Of a DNA stretch of 64,000 bases, positions 1,596 through 62,799 are shown in pieces. Origin of the DNA: Pseudomonadota bacterium (lineage in GTDB: Bacteria > Pseudomonadota > Gammaproteobacteria > UBA1113); assembly GCA_021781965.1 (NCBI GenBank), contig JAJXVU010000009.1:806-64805 (forward strand). Direction: 5' to 3'. How positions within the stretch are numbered: the first letter of the stretch is position 1; every line of letters begins with the position of its first letter. The notes beneath the pieces are model-generated. The model was given only the letters and a program-made list of their open reading frames with translations. It was not told where the DNA came from and made no database searches. A program made the translations under genes and the position numbers.

Positions 1596-1720
1596 TGCAT
1601 TAAAGTATATCTCAGCCGCCCGCTCTCTAACACCCGCGGCTCGGAAAGTCGCGGCTCAGTTCATCCGTTTGAAACGGATCATCAACCGTTAGGGAGCGGA
1701 TGGGGAGAATAGTTATTCTT
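1596..1720. repeat. Dispersed REP-like repeat (copy B, composite) between the MFS gene and the carbamoyltransferase stop
   Basis: Contains cccgcggctcggaaagtcgcggctc, a perfect hairpin atccgttt-g-aaacggat, and ccgttagggagcgg, which is the reverse complement of the core ccgctccctaacgg. Confidence 0.6.
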
Positions 1721-12496: not shown

Positions 12497-12530
12497 CTCT
12501 AGTAACTTTCCGCTCCCTAACGGTCGCGGC
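12497..12530. repeat. REP-like repeat core downstream of recJ
   Basis: ccgctccctaacggtcgcggctc is identical to the core of the units at 61371-61488. Confidence 0.6.
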
Positions 12531-12534
12531 TCTG

Positions 12535-14271
12535 TTATTCCACTACTTCTAAATGTTCAATCATCAGTTGCACATTGCGTTTGCTTTGATATTCATTCAC
12601 ATCCAATCTATACACGGCACGCACGCGTTCAGCGCGACGATTCGGCCATTCATCGGTATTAATATTAAAATAAATCGCATCTAAAACACGATGACTACCC
12701 GGAAAACCCAATTGCAATTTTAAATGTTTGGCGCCGACGATGCGTTGATTCAGTACATTAAACTCACCATCAAAACTGGGTTCCGGAAAAGCCTGTCCCC
12801 AGGGCCCGCCTTCACGTAATTGAGTCGCCATATCTAAAGTATATTCGTCTAAAGCCAATTCGCCATCGCTGTAATAAACGCCTTGCAGATCGTCTGCCGT
12901 TAAACACTTACCTATTTCAGCAGCAAAAGCAGCGCTAAATGCGGCAAAATCTTTTTCATTTAAACTTAAGCCCGCGGCCATTGCATGACCACCGAAACTG
13001 AGTAACACCCCCGGACAGTGTTTATCCACTAAATCTAATACATCGCGTATATTAACACCCTTCACCGAACGTGCCGAACCCTTTAATACCGTACCCTCAT
13101 TATGCGCAAAAGCAATCACCGGGCGATGATAGGCTTCCTTAATACGCGAGGCCAAAATACCAATAACACCTTGATGCCAGCTGCGATCGTATAAACACAA
13201 ACCCGCGGGTAGATCTTTACCTTCGCCTAAATGCAGAGCTTGAACGATTTGCATCGCTTGCAATTGCATGTCATCGCCTATTTGTTTGCGCTCTTCATTT
13301 AATAACGACAGTTGTTCGGCAATATGGCGTGCGTGATCGTGATCCTCTGTAAGCAAACACTCAATGCCCAAGGACATATCATCTAGACGTCCAGCGGCAT
13401 TTAAACGTGGGCCTACGCCAAATCCCAAGTCGGTCGCCACTAACTGATGTACGCTGCGGCCCGAAGCTTCTAATAAAGCACGTATACCCGGGCGCATACG
13501 CCCTAAACGCATACGTCTTAATCCTTGATGCACTAAAATACGATTATTGCGATCCAATGGCACCACATCGGCCACCGTGCCTAAAGCCACTATATCTAAA
13601 GCATGCGCTAAATTAGGCTCGACAATATTATTTTCTTGAAACCAATTTAATTCTCGTAAACGCGCGCGCAACGCTAATAATACATAAAAAGCAACGCCCA
13701 CACCGGCCAAAGCTTTGCTAGCAAAGTGGCAGCCCGGTTGATTGGGATTAATAATCACTTCCGCAGAAGGCAAAGTATCCCCAGGTAAATGGTGATCGGT
13801 GACCATGACCTTCATGCCCAATTCATGCGCTTTGGCTATGCCCTCGTGACTGGAAATGCCGTTATCCACGGTGATAATCCAATCCGGATTGCGTTCTTTA
13901 GCTACCAACACAATTTCCGGCGTTAAACCATAACCGTATTCAAAACGATTCGGTACTAAATAATTCACTTCTTGCAAGCCAAAAGAGCGTAATACCGAAA
14001 CTAATAACGCCGCACTGGTGGCGCCATCGGCATCGAAATCGCCAATGATCAGTACCCGCAATTGTTGTTGTAACATTTCCACCAAGTATTGCGTGGCAAG
14101 TTCTATATTCAGTAAATCGTGATAGGGTAAAAGTTGATTGAGTTCGTGATCCAATTGCGCCATATCCGACACATCGCGAGCCGCATAAATACGCTGTAAT
14201 AAAGGCGGTAAGTGATCCCCTAATTTTTGTTGGTTATTTTCATTGGCGTGCCTGCGCACAATCTTTGGCAT
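12535..14271 (-). CDS. recJ: Single-stranded-DNA-specific exonuclease RecJ
   Basis: 578 aa with DHH/DHHA1 motifs (VLIIGDFDADGATS, VTDHH) and an OB-fold C-terminus. Confidence 0.9.
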   Translation of the reverse strand: MPKIVRRHANENNQQKLGDHLPPLLQRIYAARDVSDMAQLDHELNQLLPYHDLLNIELATQYLVEMLQQQLRVLIIGDFDADGATSAALLVSVLRSFGLQEVNYLVPNRFEYGYGLTPEIVLVAKERNPDWIITVDNGISSHEGIAKAHELGMKVMVTDHHLPGDTLPSAEVIINPNQPGCHFASKALAGVGVAFYVLLALRARLRELNWFQENNIVEPNLAHALDIVALGTVADVVPLDRNNRILVHQGLRRMRLGRMRPGIRALLEASGRSVHQLVATDLGFGVGPRLNAAGRLDDMSLGIECLLTEDHDHARHIAEQLSLLNEERKQIGDDMQLQAMQIVQALHLGEGKDLPAGLCLYDRSWHQGVIGILASRIKEAYHRPVIAFAHNEGTVLKGSARSVKGVNIRDVLDLVDKHCPGVLLSFGGHAMAAGLSLNEKDFAAFSAAFAAEIGKCLTADDLQGVYYSDGELALDEYTLDMATQLREGGPWGQAFPEPSFDGEFNVLNQRIVGAKHLKLQLGFPGSHRVLDAIYFNINTDEWPNRRAERVRAVYRLDVNEYQSKRNVQLMIEHLEVVE

Positions 14272-47789: not shown

Positions 47790-48361
47790 CATGTTAGACT
47801 TCTCACCTCTAAAGTTGCATCTGGCATACTGGCTATTATTTTTTTGGATATCGCGCTTCGTTGGAAAAATTGTACATAATCGCTATTAAAGGTTAAATTA
47901 GGCTCTTCTAGTTCTTCGTCTAGTTCTTCGTCTAGCTCTTCGTCTAGTTCTTCGTCTAGCTCTTCTTCTAGCTCTACAGCCTTTTTTTGTAAATTGACAA
48001 GGTTTTTCTCTAGTTCAGGCATAAGCTTTTGAGCGGCCTTAACCTCAGGTGAAATACCATCTACTGATTCTAAAATCCCTTGAATTAAAAGATTCTTTTT
48101 ATCAATTTCAAGCTTTGTTTGAGCTATAAGCTGGGTAATGAGTTCTAAGTTTCCCTGATTTTTTTCTTTGCTCTTGTTACATTTCTGCTGTTGCTCCTCT
48201 AACATTTCCTGAATCTCTATAAGCTCTTTTACATCTTCTTTTAAACAAGGTACAGTGCACCTCAATAGATTTTCTTTATTGTGTTCTATTTCGTGATGTT
48301 GTTGCACAATGGCGCTTTTAATACGTTCAAGAAGCACTACGCTCTCTTTATTTTTAGGCAT
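47786..48361 (-). CDS. Coiled-coil protein with a C-terminal acidic (EELD)n repeat; eukaryotic-like, candidate effector
   Basis: Start set at MPKNKE, where the preceding Shine-Dalgarno is AGAGGA. Heptad-rich. The run ELEEELDEELDEELDEELDEELEE is encoded by the 12-bp tandem repeat. Confidence 0.6.
   Translation of the reverse strand: MPKNKESVVLLERIKSAIVQQHHEIEHNKENLLRCTVPCLKEDVKELIEIQEMLEEQQQKCNKSKEKNQGNLELITQLIAQTKLEIDKKNLLIQGILESVDGISPEVKAAQKLMPELEKNLVNLQKKAVELEEELDEELDEELDEELDEELEEPNLTFNSDYVQFFQRSAISKKIIASMPDATLEVRSLTC
47903..47976. repeat. 12-bp tandem repeat (GAGCTAGACGAA-like, about 6 copies) encoding the (EELD)n tract
   Basis: ctagttcttcgtctagttcttcgtctagctcttcgtctagttcttcgtctagctcttcttctagctc. 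Confidence 0.85.
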
Positions 48362-60206: not shown

Positions 60207-60599
60207 TTACACGCGTCTTTTCTTGCGTGGTCTACAGCCGTTATGCGGCAACCTGGTAACATCTTTAATTCCAATCACATTTAAGCCTAAGGTCACTAAG
60301 GCACGAACTGCGGATTCACGTCCTGGTCCAGGTCCTTTCACCATAACAACAACATTTTGCAAACCTTGTTCCATTGCTTTTTTACCGGCAATTTCCGTAG
60401 CCACACCGGCTGCAAAAGGCGTACTTTTTCTGGATCCGCGGAAACCAGAGCCCCCAGCTGTTTGCCAAGCAATTACATTACCTAGCTTATCCGCAAAGGT
60501 TACAATTGTGTTATTAAAAGTAGCCTGGATGCAAACCATTCCATCTACTACTTTACGTTTAATTTTTCGAGCCGTTTTTTTAATTGCTACTTCAGCCAT
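60207..60599 (-). CDS. rpsK: 30S ribosomal protein S11
   Basis: [15 protein letters not shown], and [13 protein letters not shown] at the C-terminus. Confidence 0.95.
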
Positions 60600-60756
60600 A
60601 ATTCTCTACTTCCACACTCAGTTAATGTACTCTACACCTTTGAACTTAGTCTTAAAGCCTTCGTCCATCTCGTCCAAGTCATGTATGAGTACAATACACT
60701 CTGTGGACTCGAGGGCTAGGCGCCTCGCCTAAAAATCAGCGGCTAGGAGTACTGTT

Positions 60757-61125
60757 CTATGCCGCCGCCGTACTAGTACGGTTACGGCCTTTACGCGTAC
60801 GCGCATTTGTTTTGGTACGTTGCCCGTGTACTGGCAGACCACGACGATGGCGCACACCACGGTAACAACCTATATCTTTCAAACGCTTAATATTTGTAGC
60901 CACTTCACGGCGCAAATCGCCTTCTACTACATATTGCGCTTTAGCGATACATTCACGAATTCGCTCTACATCTTCTTCTGATAAATCCTTAGCTTTACGA
61001 TGTCCTTCAACCTCAGCAGCTTTACAAATCTTATCCGCTAAGGTATGCCCTATGCCATAAATGGCGGTTAAGGCGATGCAAATATGTTTGTTCGGTGGAA
61101 TATTAACACCGGAAATTCGAAACAT
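60757..61125 (-). CDS. rpsM: 30S ribosomal protein S13
   Basis: GDLRREV...[28 protein letters not shown]. Confidence 0.95.
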
Positions 61126-61222
61126 AGAATACTCCCAACTTTAATTCTTAATCTAAAAAATAGCGGCTAAGGATATCTGCTTTTGCAATAAAAAGCAAGG
61201 GTTCCTTACGCATACCCTCATT

Positions 61223-61336
61223 CTAGCCTTGTCTTTGTTTGTGCTTGGCATCAGCACAAATAATGCGCACAACACCACGGCGCTTAATGACCTTGCAATT
61301 TCTGCACATTCTTTTTACAGATGCTCTTACTTTCAT
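61223..61336 (-). CDS. rpmJ: 50S ribosomal protein L36
   Basis: Hand translation of the minus strand gives [37 protein letters not shown]. It is below the ORF-track size cutoff. Confidence 0.9.
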
Positions 61337-61370
61337 AATACGCTCCAAATCTTTCATCATCAAATCTAAT

Positions 61371-61488
61371 CCGCTCCCTAACGGTCGCGGCTCGGATACT
61401 TATTTCCTTCCGATCCCTAACGGTCACGGCTCGGACATTTATCGTAACACCCTGACGGTCGCGGCTCGGACATTTACCGTAATAATCC
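61371..61488. repeat. Three tandem 36-39-bp units of the REP-like core (CCCTAACGGTC[G/A]CGGCTCGGAxATTTA...) in the secY-rpmJ spacer, overlapping the secY 3' end
   Basis: ccgctccctaacggtcgcggctcggatac... / ccctaacggtcacggctcggacatttatcg... / cctgacggtcgcggctcggacatttaccg... Confidence 0.85.
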
Positions 61489-62799
61489 TGCACCAGGCCT
61501 ATTTTTACCTTTAGTGTTAGCCTTTTTTAACAAAGACTCATATTGCACAGACATCATATGCGCTTGCACTTGCGATATAAAATCCATCAACACCACTACC
61601 ACGATCAACAACGAGGTACCACCGAAGTAAAAAGGCACACTGAGTTTACTGATCAAAATTTGCGGCAATAATGCCACAAAGATTAAGTAAATAGCCCCCA
61701 CCAAAGTCAATCGCGTCATAACCGTATCAATATATTTTGCCGTTTGCTCCCCTGGCCGTATCCCAGGAATAAAAGCGCCAGAGCGCTTTAAATTATCAGC
61801 CGTATCACGCGGATTAAACACCAATGCCGCATAAAAGAATGCGAAAAAGATGATACAAGCCGCATACGCTGCCATATAAACAGGGCTAGAAGGCTGCATC
61901 CAATAGGACACATTCTTCAACCAACCCAGACCATGCACACTACCCAAAAACTGGCTTAGTGAACCTGGCAGTAACAAAATACTCATCGCAAAAATAGGCG
62001 GTATAACCCCGGTCATATTGACCTTCAATGGCAAATGACTGGTCTGCGCCGCATACATTTTTCGTCCCTGCTGACGCTTAGCATAATGGATCGCAATACG
62101 TCGTTGTCCGCGCTCTACAAATACTACAAAGGCAAAAACTGCCAAAATCAACACAGCTACAAACAACAACACCAGTACGTCCATTTGCCCTTGTCTAGAT
62201 TGCTCTAACACACGCACAACTGCGGCGGGTAAACCCGATACGATACCGGCAAATATCAGCAAGGAAATTCCATTGCCCACACCACGTTCATTGATTTGTT
62301 CACCTAACCACATCAAAAACATTGTCCCTGTGGTTAAGGTAAGGGTAGAAATCAAATAAAACCCAAAATCTGGCGACAATGCGATGTGATTGCTGACTAT
62401 ATATTTTGTCATACCCAGCGCTTGGAACATCGCTAAAATCAAGGTACCATAACGCGTATATTGGTTTATTTTACGTCGTCCAGACTCACCTTCTTTTTTT
62501 AACTGCTCTAACTGCGGTACAACCGAAGTCATCAGCTGCACAATAATGGATGCCGAAATATAAGGCATCACACCCAACGCAAATAGACTAAATCGTCTTA
62601 ATGCACCACCGGAAAATACGTTAAAAACGCCTAGCAAACCACCTTCCTGTGCTTTAAAAAAATCAGCCAAGCGCTCTGGGTCTAGCCCCGGCACAGGAAT
62701 ATGTGTACCTATACGGTAAACAATAATCGCCACCAGTAAAAACAACAATCGTTGTTTTAGCTCACTCAATCCTGAAGTAGCAGGAGATGCAGCACTCAT
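61474..62799 (-). CDS. secY: Preprotein translocase subunit SecY, with the C-terminal tail recoded by the repeat
   Basis: Colinear with SecY to ...[12 protein letters not shown], then [10 protein letters not shown] read from repeat-derived sequence. The usual end is ...LKGYGR. Confidence 0.9.

Follow-up and report, generated by a model that had tools for sequence, protein, structure and literature searches.

A tandem array of class 3 REP-like repeats between secY and rpmJ in an uncultured Legionellales-like gammaproteobacterium

In this study, we examined a stretch of 64,000 nt (the window) from an uncultured Legionellales-like lineage, in which three short repeats lie within the spc/alpha ribosomal operon, between secY and rpmJ (Table 1). 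The spacer between these two genes is 137 nt long and reads, on the transcript strand and with the repeat units in parentheses, TTA TTA CGG TAA ATGT (CCGAGCCGCGACCGTCAGGG)TG TTACGATAA ATGT (CCGAGCCGTGACCGTTAGGGATCGG)AAGGAAATAAGTAT (CCGAGCCGCGACCGTTAGGGAGCGG)A TTAGATTTGATGATGAAAGATTTGGAGCGTATT ATG, from the last secY codons to the rpmJ start. Tandem Repeats Finder reports an array at 61375-61482 with a period of 35, 2.9 copies, 82% matches and a score of 128, and a separate repeat search delimits the copies at 61370-61403, 61409-61442 and 61444-61477, with spacings of 39 and 35 nt. The 21-nt core of the repeat has four matches in the window at three or fewer mismatches, where 0.00 are expected from 100 shuffles. 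The three head-to-tail repeats, which a sequence-only reading of this DNA had described between secY and rpmJ, are thus confirmed by tandem-repeat, repeat and core searches alike. Since assemblers can be misled by short GC-rich repeats in an AT-rich genome, the array might be thought to result from misassembly or from a chimeric join between reads that contain the repeat. However, this three-unit array with the same flanks is found in three further assemblies of the same species made from different samples (L121, L122 and L123; ENA ERZ27236847, NCBI GCA_027325585.1 and ENA ERZ936015), which differ by natural SNPs, including one in the middle unit B, where L123 has C in place of the T found here. 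This excludes an artefact for practical purposes, and we give that explanation almost no chance of being right.

Table 1 Features of the secY-rpmJ region and further REP copies in the window
Feature	Position	Strand	Remarks
secY	61474..62799	-	441 aa; stop TAA 61474-61476; from the ORF list, PF00344
rpmJ (L36, 37 aa)	61223..61336	-	from translation; PF00444 called in L125
rpsM	60757-61125	-	spc/alpha ribosomal operon
rpsK	60207-60599	-	spc/alpha operon; rpsD, rpoA and rplQ next
rpmJ Shine-Dalgarno GGAG	61343..61346	-	distance to ATG as in relatives without the array
Inserted block as aligned, three REP units and linkers	61370..61473	-	between secY stop and TTAGA; missing in L129
REP unit A (secY-proximal)	61445..61469	-	CCGAGCCGCGACCGTCAGGG followed by TGTTA; 3' arm truncated; within first 35-nt copy
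REP unit B (middle)	61410..61434	-	CCGAGCCGTGACCGTTAGGGATCGG; two substitutions give a U-U mismatch in the outer stem
REP unit C (rpmJ-proximal), intact	61371..61395	-	CCGAG + CCGC GA CC [GTTA] GG GA GCGG
Fossil secY 3' end TTACGATAA (Leu-Arg-stop)	61439..61447	-	opens second 35-nt copy; direct sequence reading
REP copy CAGAGCCGCGACCGTTAGGGAGCGG	12510..12534	-	begins with the base following the recJ stop; sense; -12.1 kcal/mol, z = -3.4
REP copy CAGAGCCGCGACCGAAAGGGAGCGG, GAAA loop	9324..9348	+	intergenic, antisense to both neighbours; -14.5 kcal/mol, z = -4.1
Degenerate REP mosaic TCCGCTCCCTAACGG, TGAGCCGCGAC, CCGAGCCGCGGGTGTTAGAGAGCGG	1620..1700	-	intergenic spacer

A second spacer of the same operon, between rpsM and rpsK (60600-60756), is also expanded, measuring 157 nt here compared with 28, 37, 73 and 125 nt in relatives. 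Its ends are conserved and its middle is lineage-specific, including the GC-rich GGCGAGGCGCCTAGCCCTCGAGTCC, and it is unrelated to the REP units. A 17-nt direct repeat (60729-60745 and 61153-61169; transcript strand TAGCCGCT[G/A]ATTTTT[T]AG) lies upstream of rpsK and of rpsM. The rpsM copy is kept in relatives and comes after a terminator-like hairpin and T run (61195-61209), and the repeat may mark an alpha-operon promoter or leader. Elsewhere, the window holds a 99-nt tandem repeat (22465-22997; 5.4 copies, 85% matches, also scored with a 198-nt period), which would equal protein repeats of 33 residues, and the 12-nt tandem repeat TCTAGCTCTTCG (47907-47975; 5.8 copies, 92% matches).

Comparison with relatives separates what the array changed from what it did not. 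A search with SecY found 8000 homologues, whose C-termini we compared. The extended tail of the window SecY is identical in relatives with 96% (P0001, L129) and 93% (P0002, L124-L126) SecY identity, both of which are without the repeats. At 88% identity (P0003) the protein ends in ...SKGRTQPGAGLLR and at 73% (P0004) in ...PKGRTSPGAGLLR, and GAGLLR or GLLR endings are found in many relatives at 67-73% identity; at 67-70%, where some of the sequences are named Legionellales, many end in GAGLLR, MGLLR or GLLR. As the same tail and endings occur in relatives without repeats, the extended tail is ancestral to the clade. The spacer itself, from TAG to the rpmJ ATG, measures 22 nt in the 96% relative (L129); it has 22 nt at 88% (L127) and 29 nt at 73% (L128), and at 93% (L124-L126) it has 77 nt of unrelated sequence, in every case with no repeat. 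The sequence-only reading had envisaged an insertion into the secY-rpmJ spacer that at the same time recoded the SecY C-terminus, and had proposed to align the secY 3' end and spacer with relatives, where an extended tail lacking the repeats would speak against recoding. This alignment bears out the insertion, the array being missing in relatives with 96, 93, 88 and 73% identical SecY, and contradicts the recoded tail, which is present in exactly the same form in the repeat-free L129 and L124/L125. A repeat inserted in the secY coding region, replacing the conserved C-terminal tail, would have accounted for the overlap of the period-35 unit with the last three secY codons TTA CGG TAA (61474-61482, 9 nt) and for a tail 7 residues longer than that of E. 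coli SecY, which ends in ...LKGYGR. We nevertheless consider it extremely unlikely, given the shared tail of the repeat-free relatives, the frequency of GAGLLR/GLLR endings down to 67% identity, and the position of the conserved REP core, which begins 4 nt downstream of the secY stop codon. About 104 nt (61370-61473) were thus inserted in this lineage alone, wholly 3' of the secY stop, leaving SecY unchanged and the ribosome-binding site of rpmJ intact.

The unit is a 26-nt element composed of a C-N-G-A foot and the hairpin CCGC-GA-CC[GTNA]GG-GA-GCGG. It matches published class 3 REPs, so that the REP-like identity first proposed from the letters holds. Full-text literature searches for the repeat sequence and its translated peptides returned nothing, and the match came only from Table S1 of a survey of these elements (Quentin et al. 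2018, BMC Genomics 19:475, PMC6006769), in which the class 3 REP of five L. pneumophila strains is listed as CCGAGCCGCGACCGTAAGGGAGCGGA, with the structure .....((((..((....))..)))). and that of S. usitatus begins CAGAGCCGCGACCGTTAGGGAGCG. Unit C, CCGAGCCGCGACCGTTAGGGAGCGGA (with the following A, 61370), agrees with the L. pneumophila element at 25/26 positions, the sole difference being the free loop base, and the copy next to recJ equals the first 24 nt of the S. usitatus element exactly. The structure published for the L. pneumophila class 3 REP is also predicted for unit C and for the copies at recJ and at 9.3 kb (-12.1 to -14.5 kcal/mol). The foot is CCGA in units A, B and C and CAGA in the recJ and 9.3-kb copies. 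Class 3 REPs were described as having a CnGA foot, as reaching about 600 copies in Solibacter usitatus and as ranging over Planctomycetes, Acidobacteria and Proteobacteria (Quentin et al. 2018). The REPs that accompany genes for class 3 TnpA-Y1 HUH/Y1 endonucleases (REPtrons) in L. pneumophila, Solibacter usitatus and Planctomyces limnophilus share with ours the 26-nt unit, the CnGA foot, the hairpin with a 2x2 G-A/A-G internal loop and the 4-nt loop; they are likewise dispersed and intergenic, and their taxonomic spread agrees. What sets the present case apart is the arrangement of the units in direct tandem within the spc operon, one of them truncated, the lack of a cognate gene within the window, and the host, which belongs to an uncultured Legionellales-like lineage outside the 2018 paper.

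Classical REP/BIME elements with their RAYT proteins (class 2; Escherichia coli, Pseudomonas) are also short extragenic hairpins, found singly, in inverted pairs or in clusters, mostly at gene 3' ends, and are also tied to a single-copy Y1 HUH protein. However, their GTAG/GT[AG]G tag is absent from all units here, which have the foot CnGA(G); the class 3 stem is shorter and contains an internal loop, and the class 3 protein has Y....Q as opposed to the YIxxNP of RAYT. Inverted doublets with a genome-conserved spacer, as in REPINs (Bertels and Rainey 2011), also occur in relatives (e.g. L045, L108, with a hairpin of -65.9 kcal/mol, and L203), whereas all three secY units are direct, in the same orientation and without an inverted doublet. 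Further, vertical inheritance within lineages has been described for REPIN-RAYT systems, while the class 3 core is nearly invariant across phyla. Rickettsia palindromic elements, which are about 100-150 nt long, insert in frame into genes. Class 3 REPs are occasionally in frame too (read PLPDGRGSE in the valS of L063), but the secY element lies outside the coding sequence and leaves the protein unchanged, and the Rickettsia elements are unrelated in sequence. Three other candidates were rejected. A CRISPR array does not fit linkers of 10-14 nt, period-35 units that share the linker TTACGRTAAATGT, or the identical 'spacers' of L136/L172; an integron attC does not fit the 76% of units with GTCAGGG, not a GTT core, or the many single units; and the sequence does not fit a hammerhead-like CUGANGA. 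Rfam gave no match at gathering score in the whole window and none at E <= 10 in 61100-61600, and a tRNA/tmRNA scan gave none either.

REP sites in the 64 kb number at least four (at 1.6, 9.3, 12.5 and 61.4 kb), all of them intergenic. In L203, whose RecJ is 81% identical, one REP stands 5 nt after recJ and a second at the site equivalent to 9.3 kb, and there is an inverted doublet in addition. The 97% (L201) and 92% (L202) relatives have no REP; unrelated sequence takes the place of their spacers, and their RecJ proteins differ in the final three residues. From the REPs in L203 and their absence from L201 and L202 it follows that the family is old in the clade, with turnover at individual sites. 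For the recJ and 9.3-kb copies, the 97% relative offers no clean empty site, since both spacers have been replaced wholesale; gain and loss are not always separable. The end of RecJ (12535-12545) reads ...EVVE here and ...EVVD in the 81% relative, each followed by the REP, and ...EAIT with no REP in the 97% and 92% relatives. The gene end here groups with that of the distant relative and not with those of the close ones, a pattern that suggests either that the REP was lost along with the final codons or that local recombination took place. In the 97% relative, the recJ-mmsB spacer (L201 11740-11986) contains a different element of ~190 nt with long inverted ends, CGTCATTGCGAGCTTGCGAAGCAATCCAGG ... 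CCTGGATTGCTTCGCAAGCTCGCAATGACG, which has a MITE-like look.

Beyond these relatives, the cultured Legionella adelaidensis NCTC12735 carries one class 3 REP between dnaK and dnaJ and another that covers the final ~10 nt of hemB on the other strand (L199 5002-5026 and L198 6003-6027). A position within a compact housekeeping operon is thus not exceptional, and to call the secY-rpmJ site unusual, as had been done from the sequence of this window, was an overstatement. The L. adelaidensis records labelled 'plasmid' hold core genes (lysS, nrdAB, the atp operon, dnaK) and look like chromosome pieces.

In a genome scan that used one genome per species and the query GAGCCGYGACCGTYAGGG, the repeat was found at 120 or more loci. 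By record title, the matches listed comprise 53 Acidobacteriota, 48 Planctomycetota, 10 low-GC Gammaproteobacteria (two of them Legionella MAGs) and 9 others, from Binatia, Sumerlaeota, Desulfobacterota, Anaerolineae and unclassified sources. A position matrix of 147 copies has sharp edges at -3 and +23 and random flanks, with the consensus (W)(T)C-N-GAGCCGCGACCGTNAGGGAGCGG(T), in which the foot has C in 76% of copies, then N, then a G and an A that the search pattern imposes. The inner stem pair covaries: of 226 distinct variants, 154 have C-G, 24 have G-C and 5 have A-T. The third loop base is free. The GAGCC... strand is predicted to fold as CCGC-GA-CC[GUNA]GG-GA-GCGG at -12 to -13 kcal/mol (z about -2.6), compared with a weak fold of the complementary strand (-8.1 kcal/mol, z = -0.2); this stability on one strand only is due to the tandem G-A internal loop. 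Copies may stand alone or form inverted doublets whose spacers measure about 10-35 nt; others lie tail to tail or in direct arrays. At low-GC loci every copy is intergenic, and over all loci about 84% are, by crude gene calls. The same crude calls, applied to all loci, place copies in 22 convergent vs 10 divergent spacers and give an upstream gene on the same strand in 44 cases vs the opposite strand in 35; inside tandem gene pairs they give no sense-strand bias (12 sense vs 17 antisense). An orientation bias relative to transcription, suggestive in low-GC loci, is hence unsupported by these calls over all loci.

A sister repeat, CNGAGCCGCGCGCGTNAGCAAGCGG, co-occurs with the main form at many genome loci (e.g. 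L003, L054, L061, L065, L085, L101 and L109); in the sister repeat the inner stem has G-C where the main form has C-G, and the internal loop is altered. Higher-order arrays that repeat every 67-69 nt and contain five full units are found at L136 1300-1720 and L172 13100-13520, where full units are interleaved with 5' half units (TTTCCGAGCCGCGCCTG...) and the 'spacers' are identical, and thus not those of a CRISPR. The core is also present in 68 IMG/VR stretches. On one phage-like contig, REP arrays that include truncated units lie between the portal and large-terminase genes (L165 3800-4200; also L170, L186 and L190; IMG/VR), and phages may carry the class 3 REP between hosts.

To relate the repeat to an enzyme, we searched by the repeat alone. 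A metagenome scan with the query CCGAGCCGCGACCGTWAGGGAGCGGA gave 120 loci, three of which (L212, L264 and L291) contain class 3 Y1 ORFs of 160-170 aa with the motifs (S/T)NHVH, RW(A/T) and Y(V/T)(V/I)xxQ. A REP lies on both sides of the ORF in inverted orientation at L212 and L264, and a REP doublet on each side at L291. The two that were scanned against Pfam, those of L212 and L264, both pass the Y1_Tnp model (29 and 32.8 bits vs a cut-off of 23). A profile built from the three proteins matched at least 6662 protein clusters at E <= 1e-5; the best 120 of these at least 6662 matches are all Acidobacteriota-like, and their IMG name is "REP element-mobilizing transposase RayT". Within the 64-kb window, tblastn with the three recovered proteins and motif scans found no class 3 Y1 gene. 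The class 3 motif scan was likewise negative in L001-L197 (genome, viral and relative loci) and in L198-L203, a separate scan for ORFs with REPs on both sides gave no plausible candidate, ORF clustering around the 120 genome loci gave no recurrent neighbour gene, and tblastn of a class 3 protein against PLSDB gave no match. For class 3 enzymes, transposition has never been shown experimentally, and further experiments were called for (Quentin et al. 2018).

When we scanned for the RAYT-type motif YxxxNP, the sole hit was a class 2-like Y1 domain inside the valS of L063, and it was not adjacent to the REP. In this Phycisphaerales MAG (L063 2-4114), a valyl-tRNA synthetase ORF of 1371 aa contains the RAYT-like Y1_Tnp domain in frame (...RNLPHW...DHVHLL...YILNNPVKAG...; PF01797, 25.1 bits vs a cut-off of 23), along with the in-frame class 3 REP mentioned above. 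Either an essential gene tolerates large in-frame mobile insertions here, or the ORF is open by chance owing to high GC.

The inner organisation of the secY array bears on how it was formed. The 13 nt that precede the core, TTACGRTAAATGT, are the same in units A and B, and the period-35 repeat consequently takes in Leu-Arg-stop. The fossil TTACGATAA in the spacer differs from the secY end of the 96% relative L129, TTACGATAG, only in the third base of the stop codon (TAA vs TAG). Unit A stops after ...AGGG and is joined directly to the second copy, the first 35-nt copy spanning 61448-61482, and it is the upstream copy that supplies the present secY end, with a synonymous CGG. That the secY frame seems to enter a repeat unit is thus most simply explained by a 35-nt tandem duplication that copied the last three secY codons. 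Arrays with truncated units are also found at L118, L136 and L172. Taking these observations together with the comparison of relatives, we regard it as highly probable that the array consists of three copies of a class 3 TnpA-Y1 REP, which entered the secY-rpmJ spacer after the split from the closest sampled relatives. One or two units (B and C) would have been deposited first, 3' of the secY stop, by the single-strand DNA cut-and-join activity of a putative class 3 Y1 enzyme whose gene would lie in another part of the genome. Tandem duplication of 35 nt, comprising the final 9 nt of secY (TTACGATAA), ATGT and the 5' part of the REP, would then have produced unit A, with its truncated 3' arm, and left the former secY end as a fossil in the spacer. 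This order of events, with two insertions followed by one duplication, is a reconstruction, and from the single complex secY site no target-site signature is definable.

Whether such an insertion matters to the operon depends on what it does in the transcript. E. coli REPs stabilise upstream mRNA and, when located within about 15 nt of the stop codon, lower expression. From its position and orientation, a stabilising or attenuating effect of the array on the spc mRNA is possible. The three units, whose RNA fold had been suggested as a check, differ in this respect: the family hairpin is predicted for unit C alone (-12.1 kcal/mol, ((((..((....))..))))), unit B folds into a different hairpin (UCCGA/UCGGA, -10.7 kcal/mol), and unit A forms no family hairpin (-4.1 kcal/mol, z = +1.7). 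If the array had been co-opted as a cis-acting RNA element, giving protection from 3'-5' exonucleases, a processing site, or attenuated read-through or coupling into rpmJ, the SecY:L36 ratio would change. In keeping with this, the three secY units and the recJ copy are sense-oriented near a stop codon, the hairpin is stable on this strand only (-12 to -13 vs -8.1 kcal/mol), the same REP lies in the dnaK-dnaJ spacer of L. adelaidensis, E. coli REPs have the effects just described, and a simple terminator scan picks up unit C followed by AUUAGAUUUG / ATTAGATTTG as a match to a loose terminator pattern. However, such terminator-like sites in the region are not above shuffles (4 vs 1.8 +/- 1.3), the predicted stability of the whole 181-nt region does not exceed that of shuffled sequence (z = -0.51), unit A lacks a hairpin and the stem of unit B is mismatched, four relatives lack any such element, and tandem gene pairs have no family-wide sense bias (12 vs 17, by the crude gene calls). 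We therefore consider co-option unlikely. On the reading that we prefer, a class 3 REP insertion enlarged by duplication, unit C (and B weakly) could fold on the operon mRNA, given the sense orientation of the units. Any effect on mRNA decay or secY/rpmJ coupling, of the sort that E. coli REPs have, would be modest at most, and the array would most likely be a tolerated passenger.

A related question concerns the family as a whole. The 22-nt core hardly varies among Acidobacteriota, Planctomycetota, Legionellales-like Gammaproteobacteria, Binatia, Sumerlaeota, Desulfobacterota and phage contigs. The class 3 REP could accordingly be conceived as more than transposase debris, either because a single REPtron is still spreading between phyla, possibly by phages, or because the element serves as a strand-specific RNA module at gene 3' ends, though we assign this a low probability. 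Were the RNA module real, the copies after secY, recJ and dnaK would tune the fate of operon mRNAs.

In conclusion, the repeat belongs to a described but obscure family, of which the secY-rpmJ site is a new instance, and an over-reading of this locus is corrected in that SecY is not recoded. The 26-nt consensus can be used to mask spurious small ORFs (...PLPNGRGS..., ...EPRPSGSG...) in these phyla. The known range of class 3 REPs and their Y1 genes is widened well past the 24 proteins of the 2018 survey (Quentin et al. 2018), to at least 6662 protein clusters. Comparison of filled and empty sites shows the gain of a class 3 REP array in a core ribosomal operon with neither gene harmed, and the fossil stop left by the putative 35-nt duplication suggests that such arrays grow by local duplication and can, in doing so, seem to invade a reading frame.
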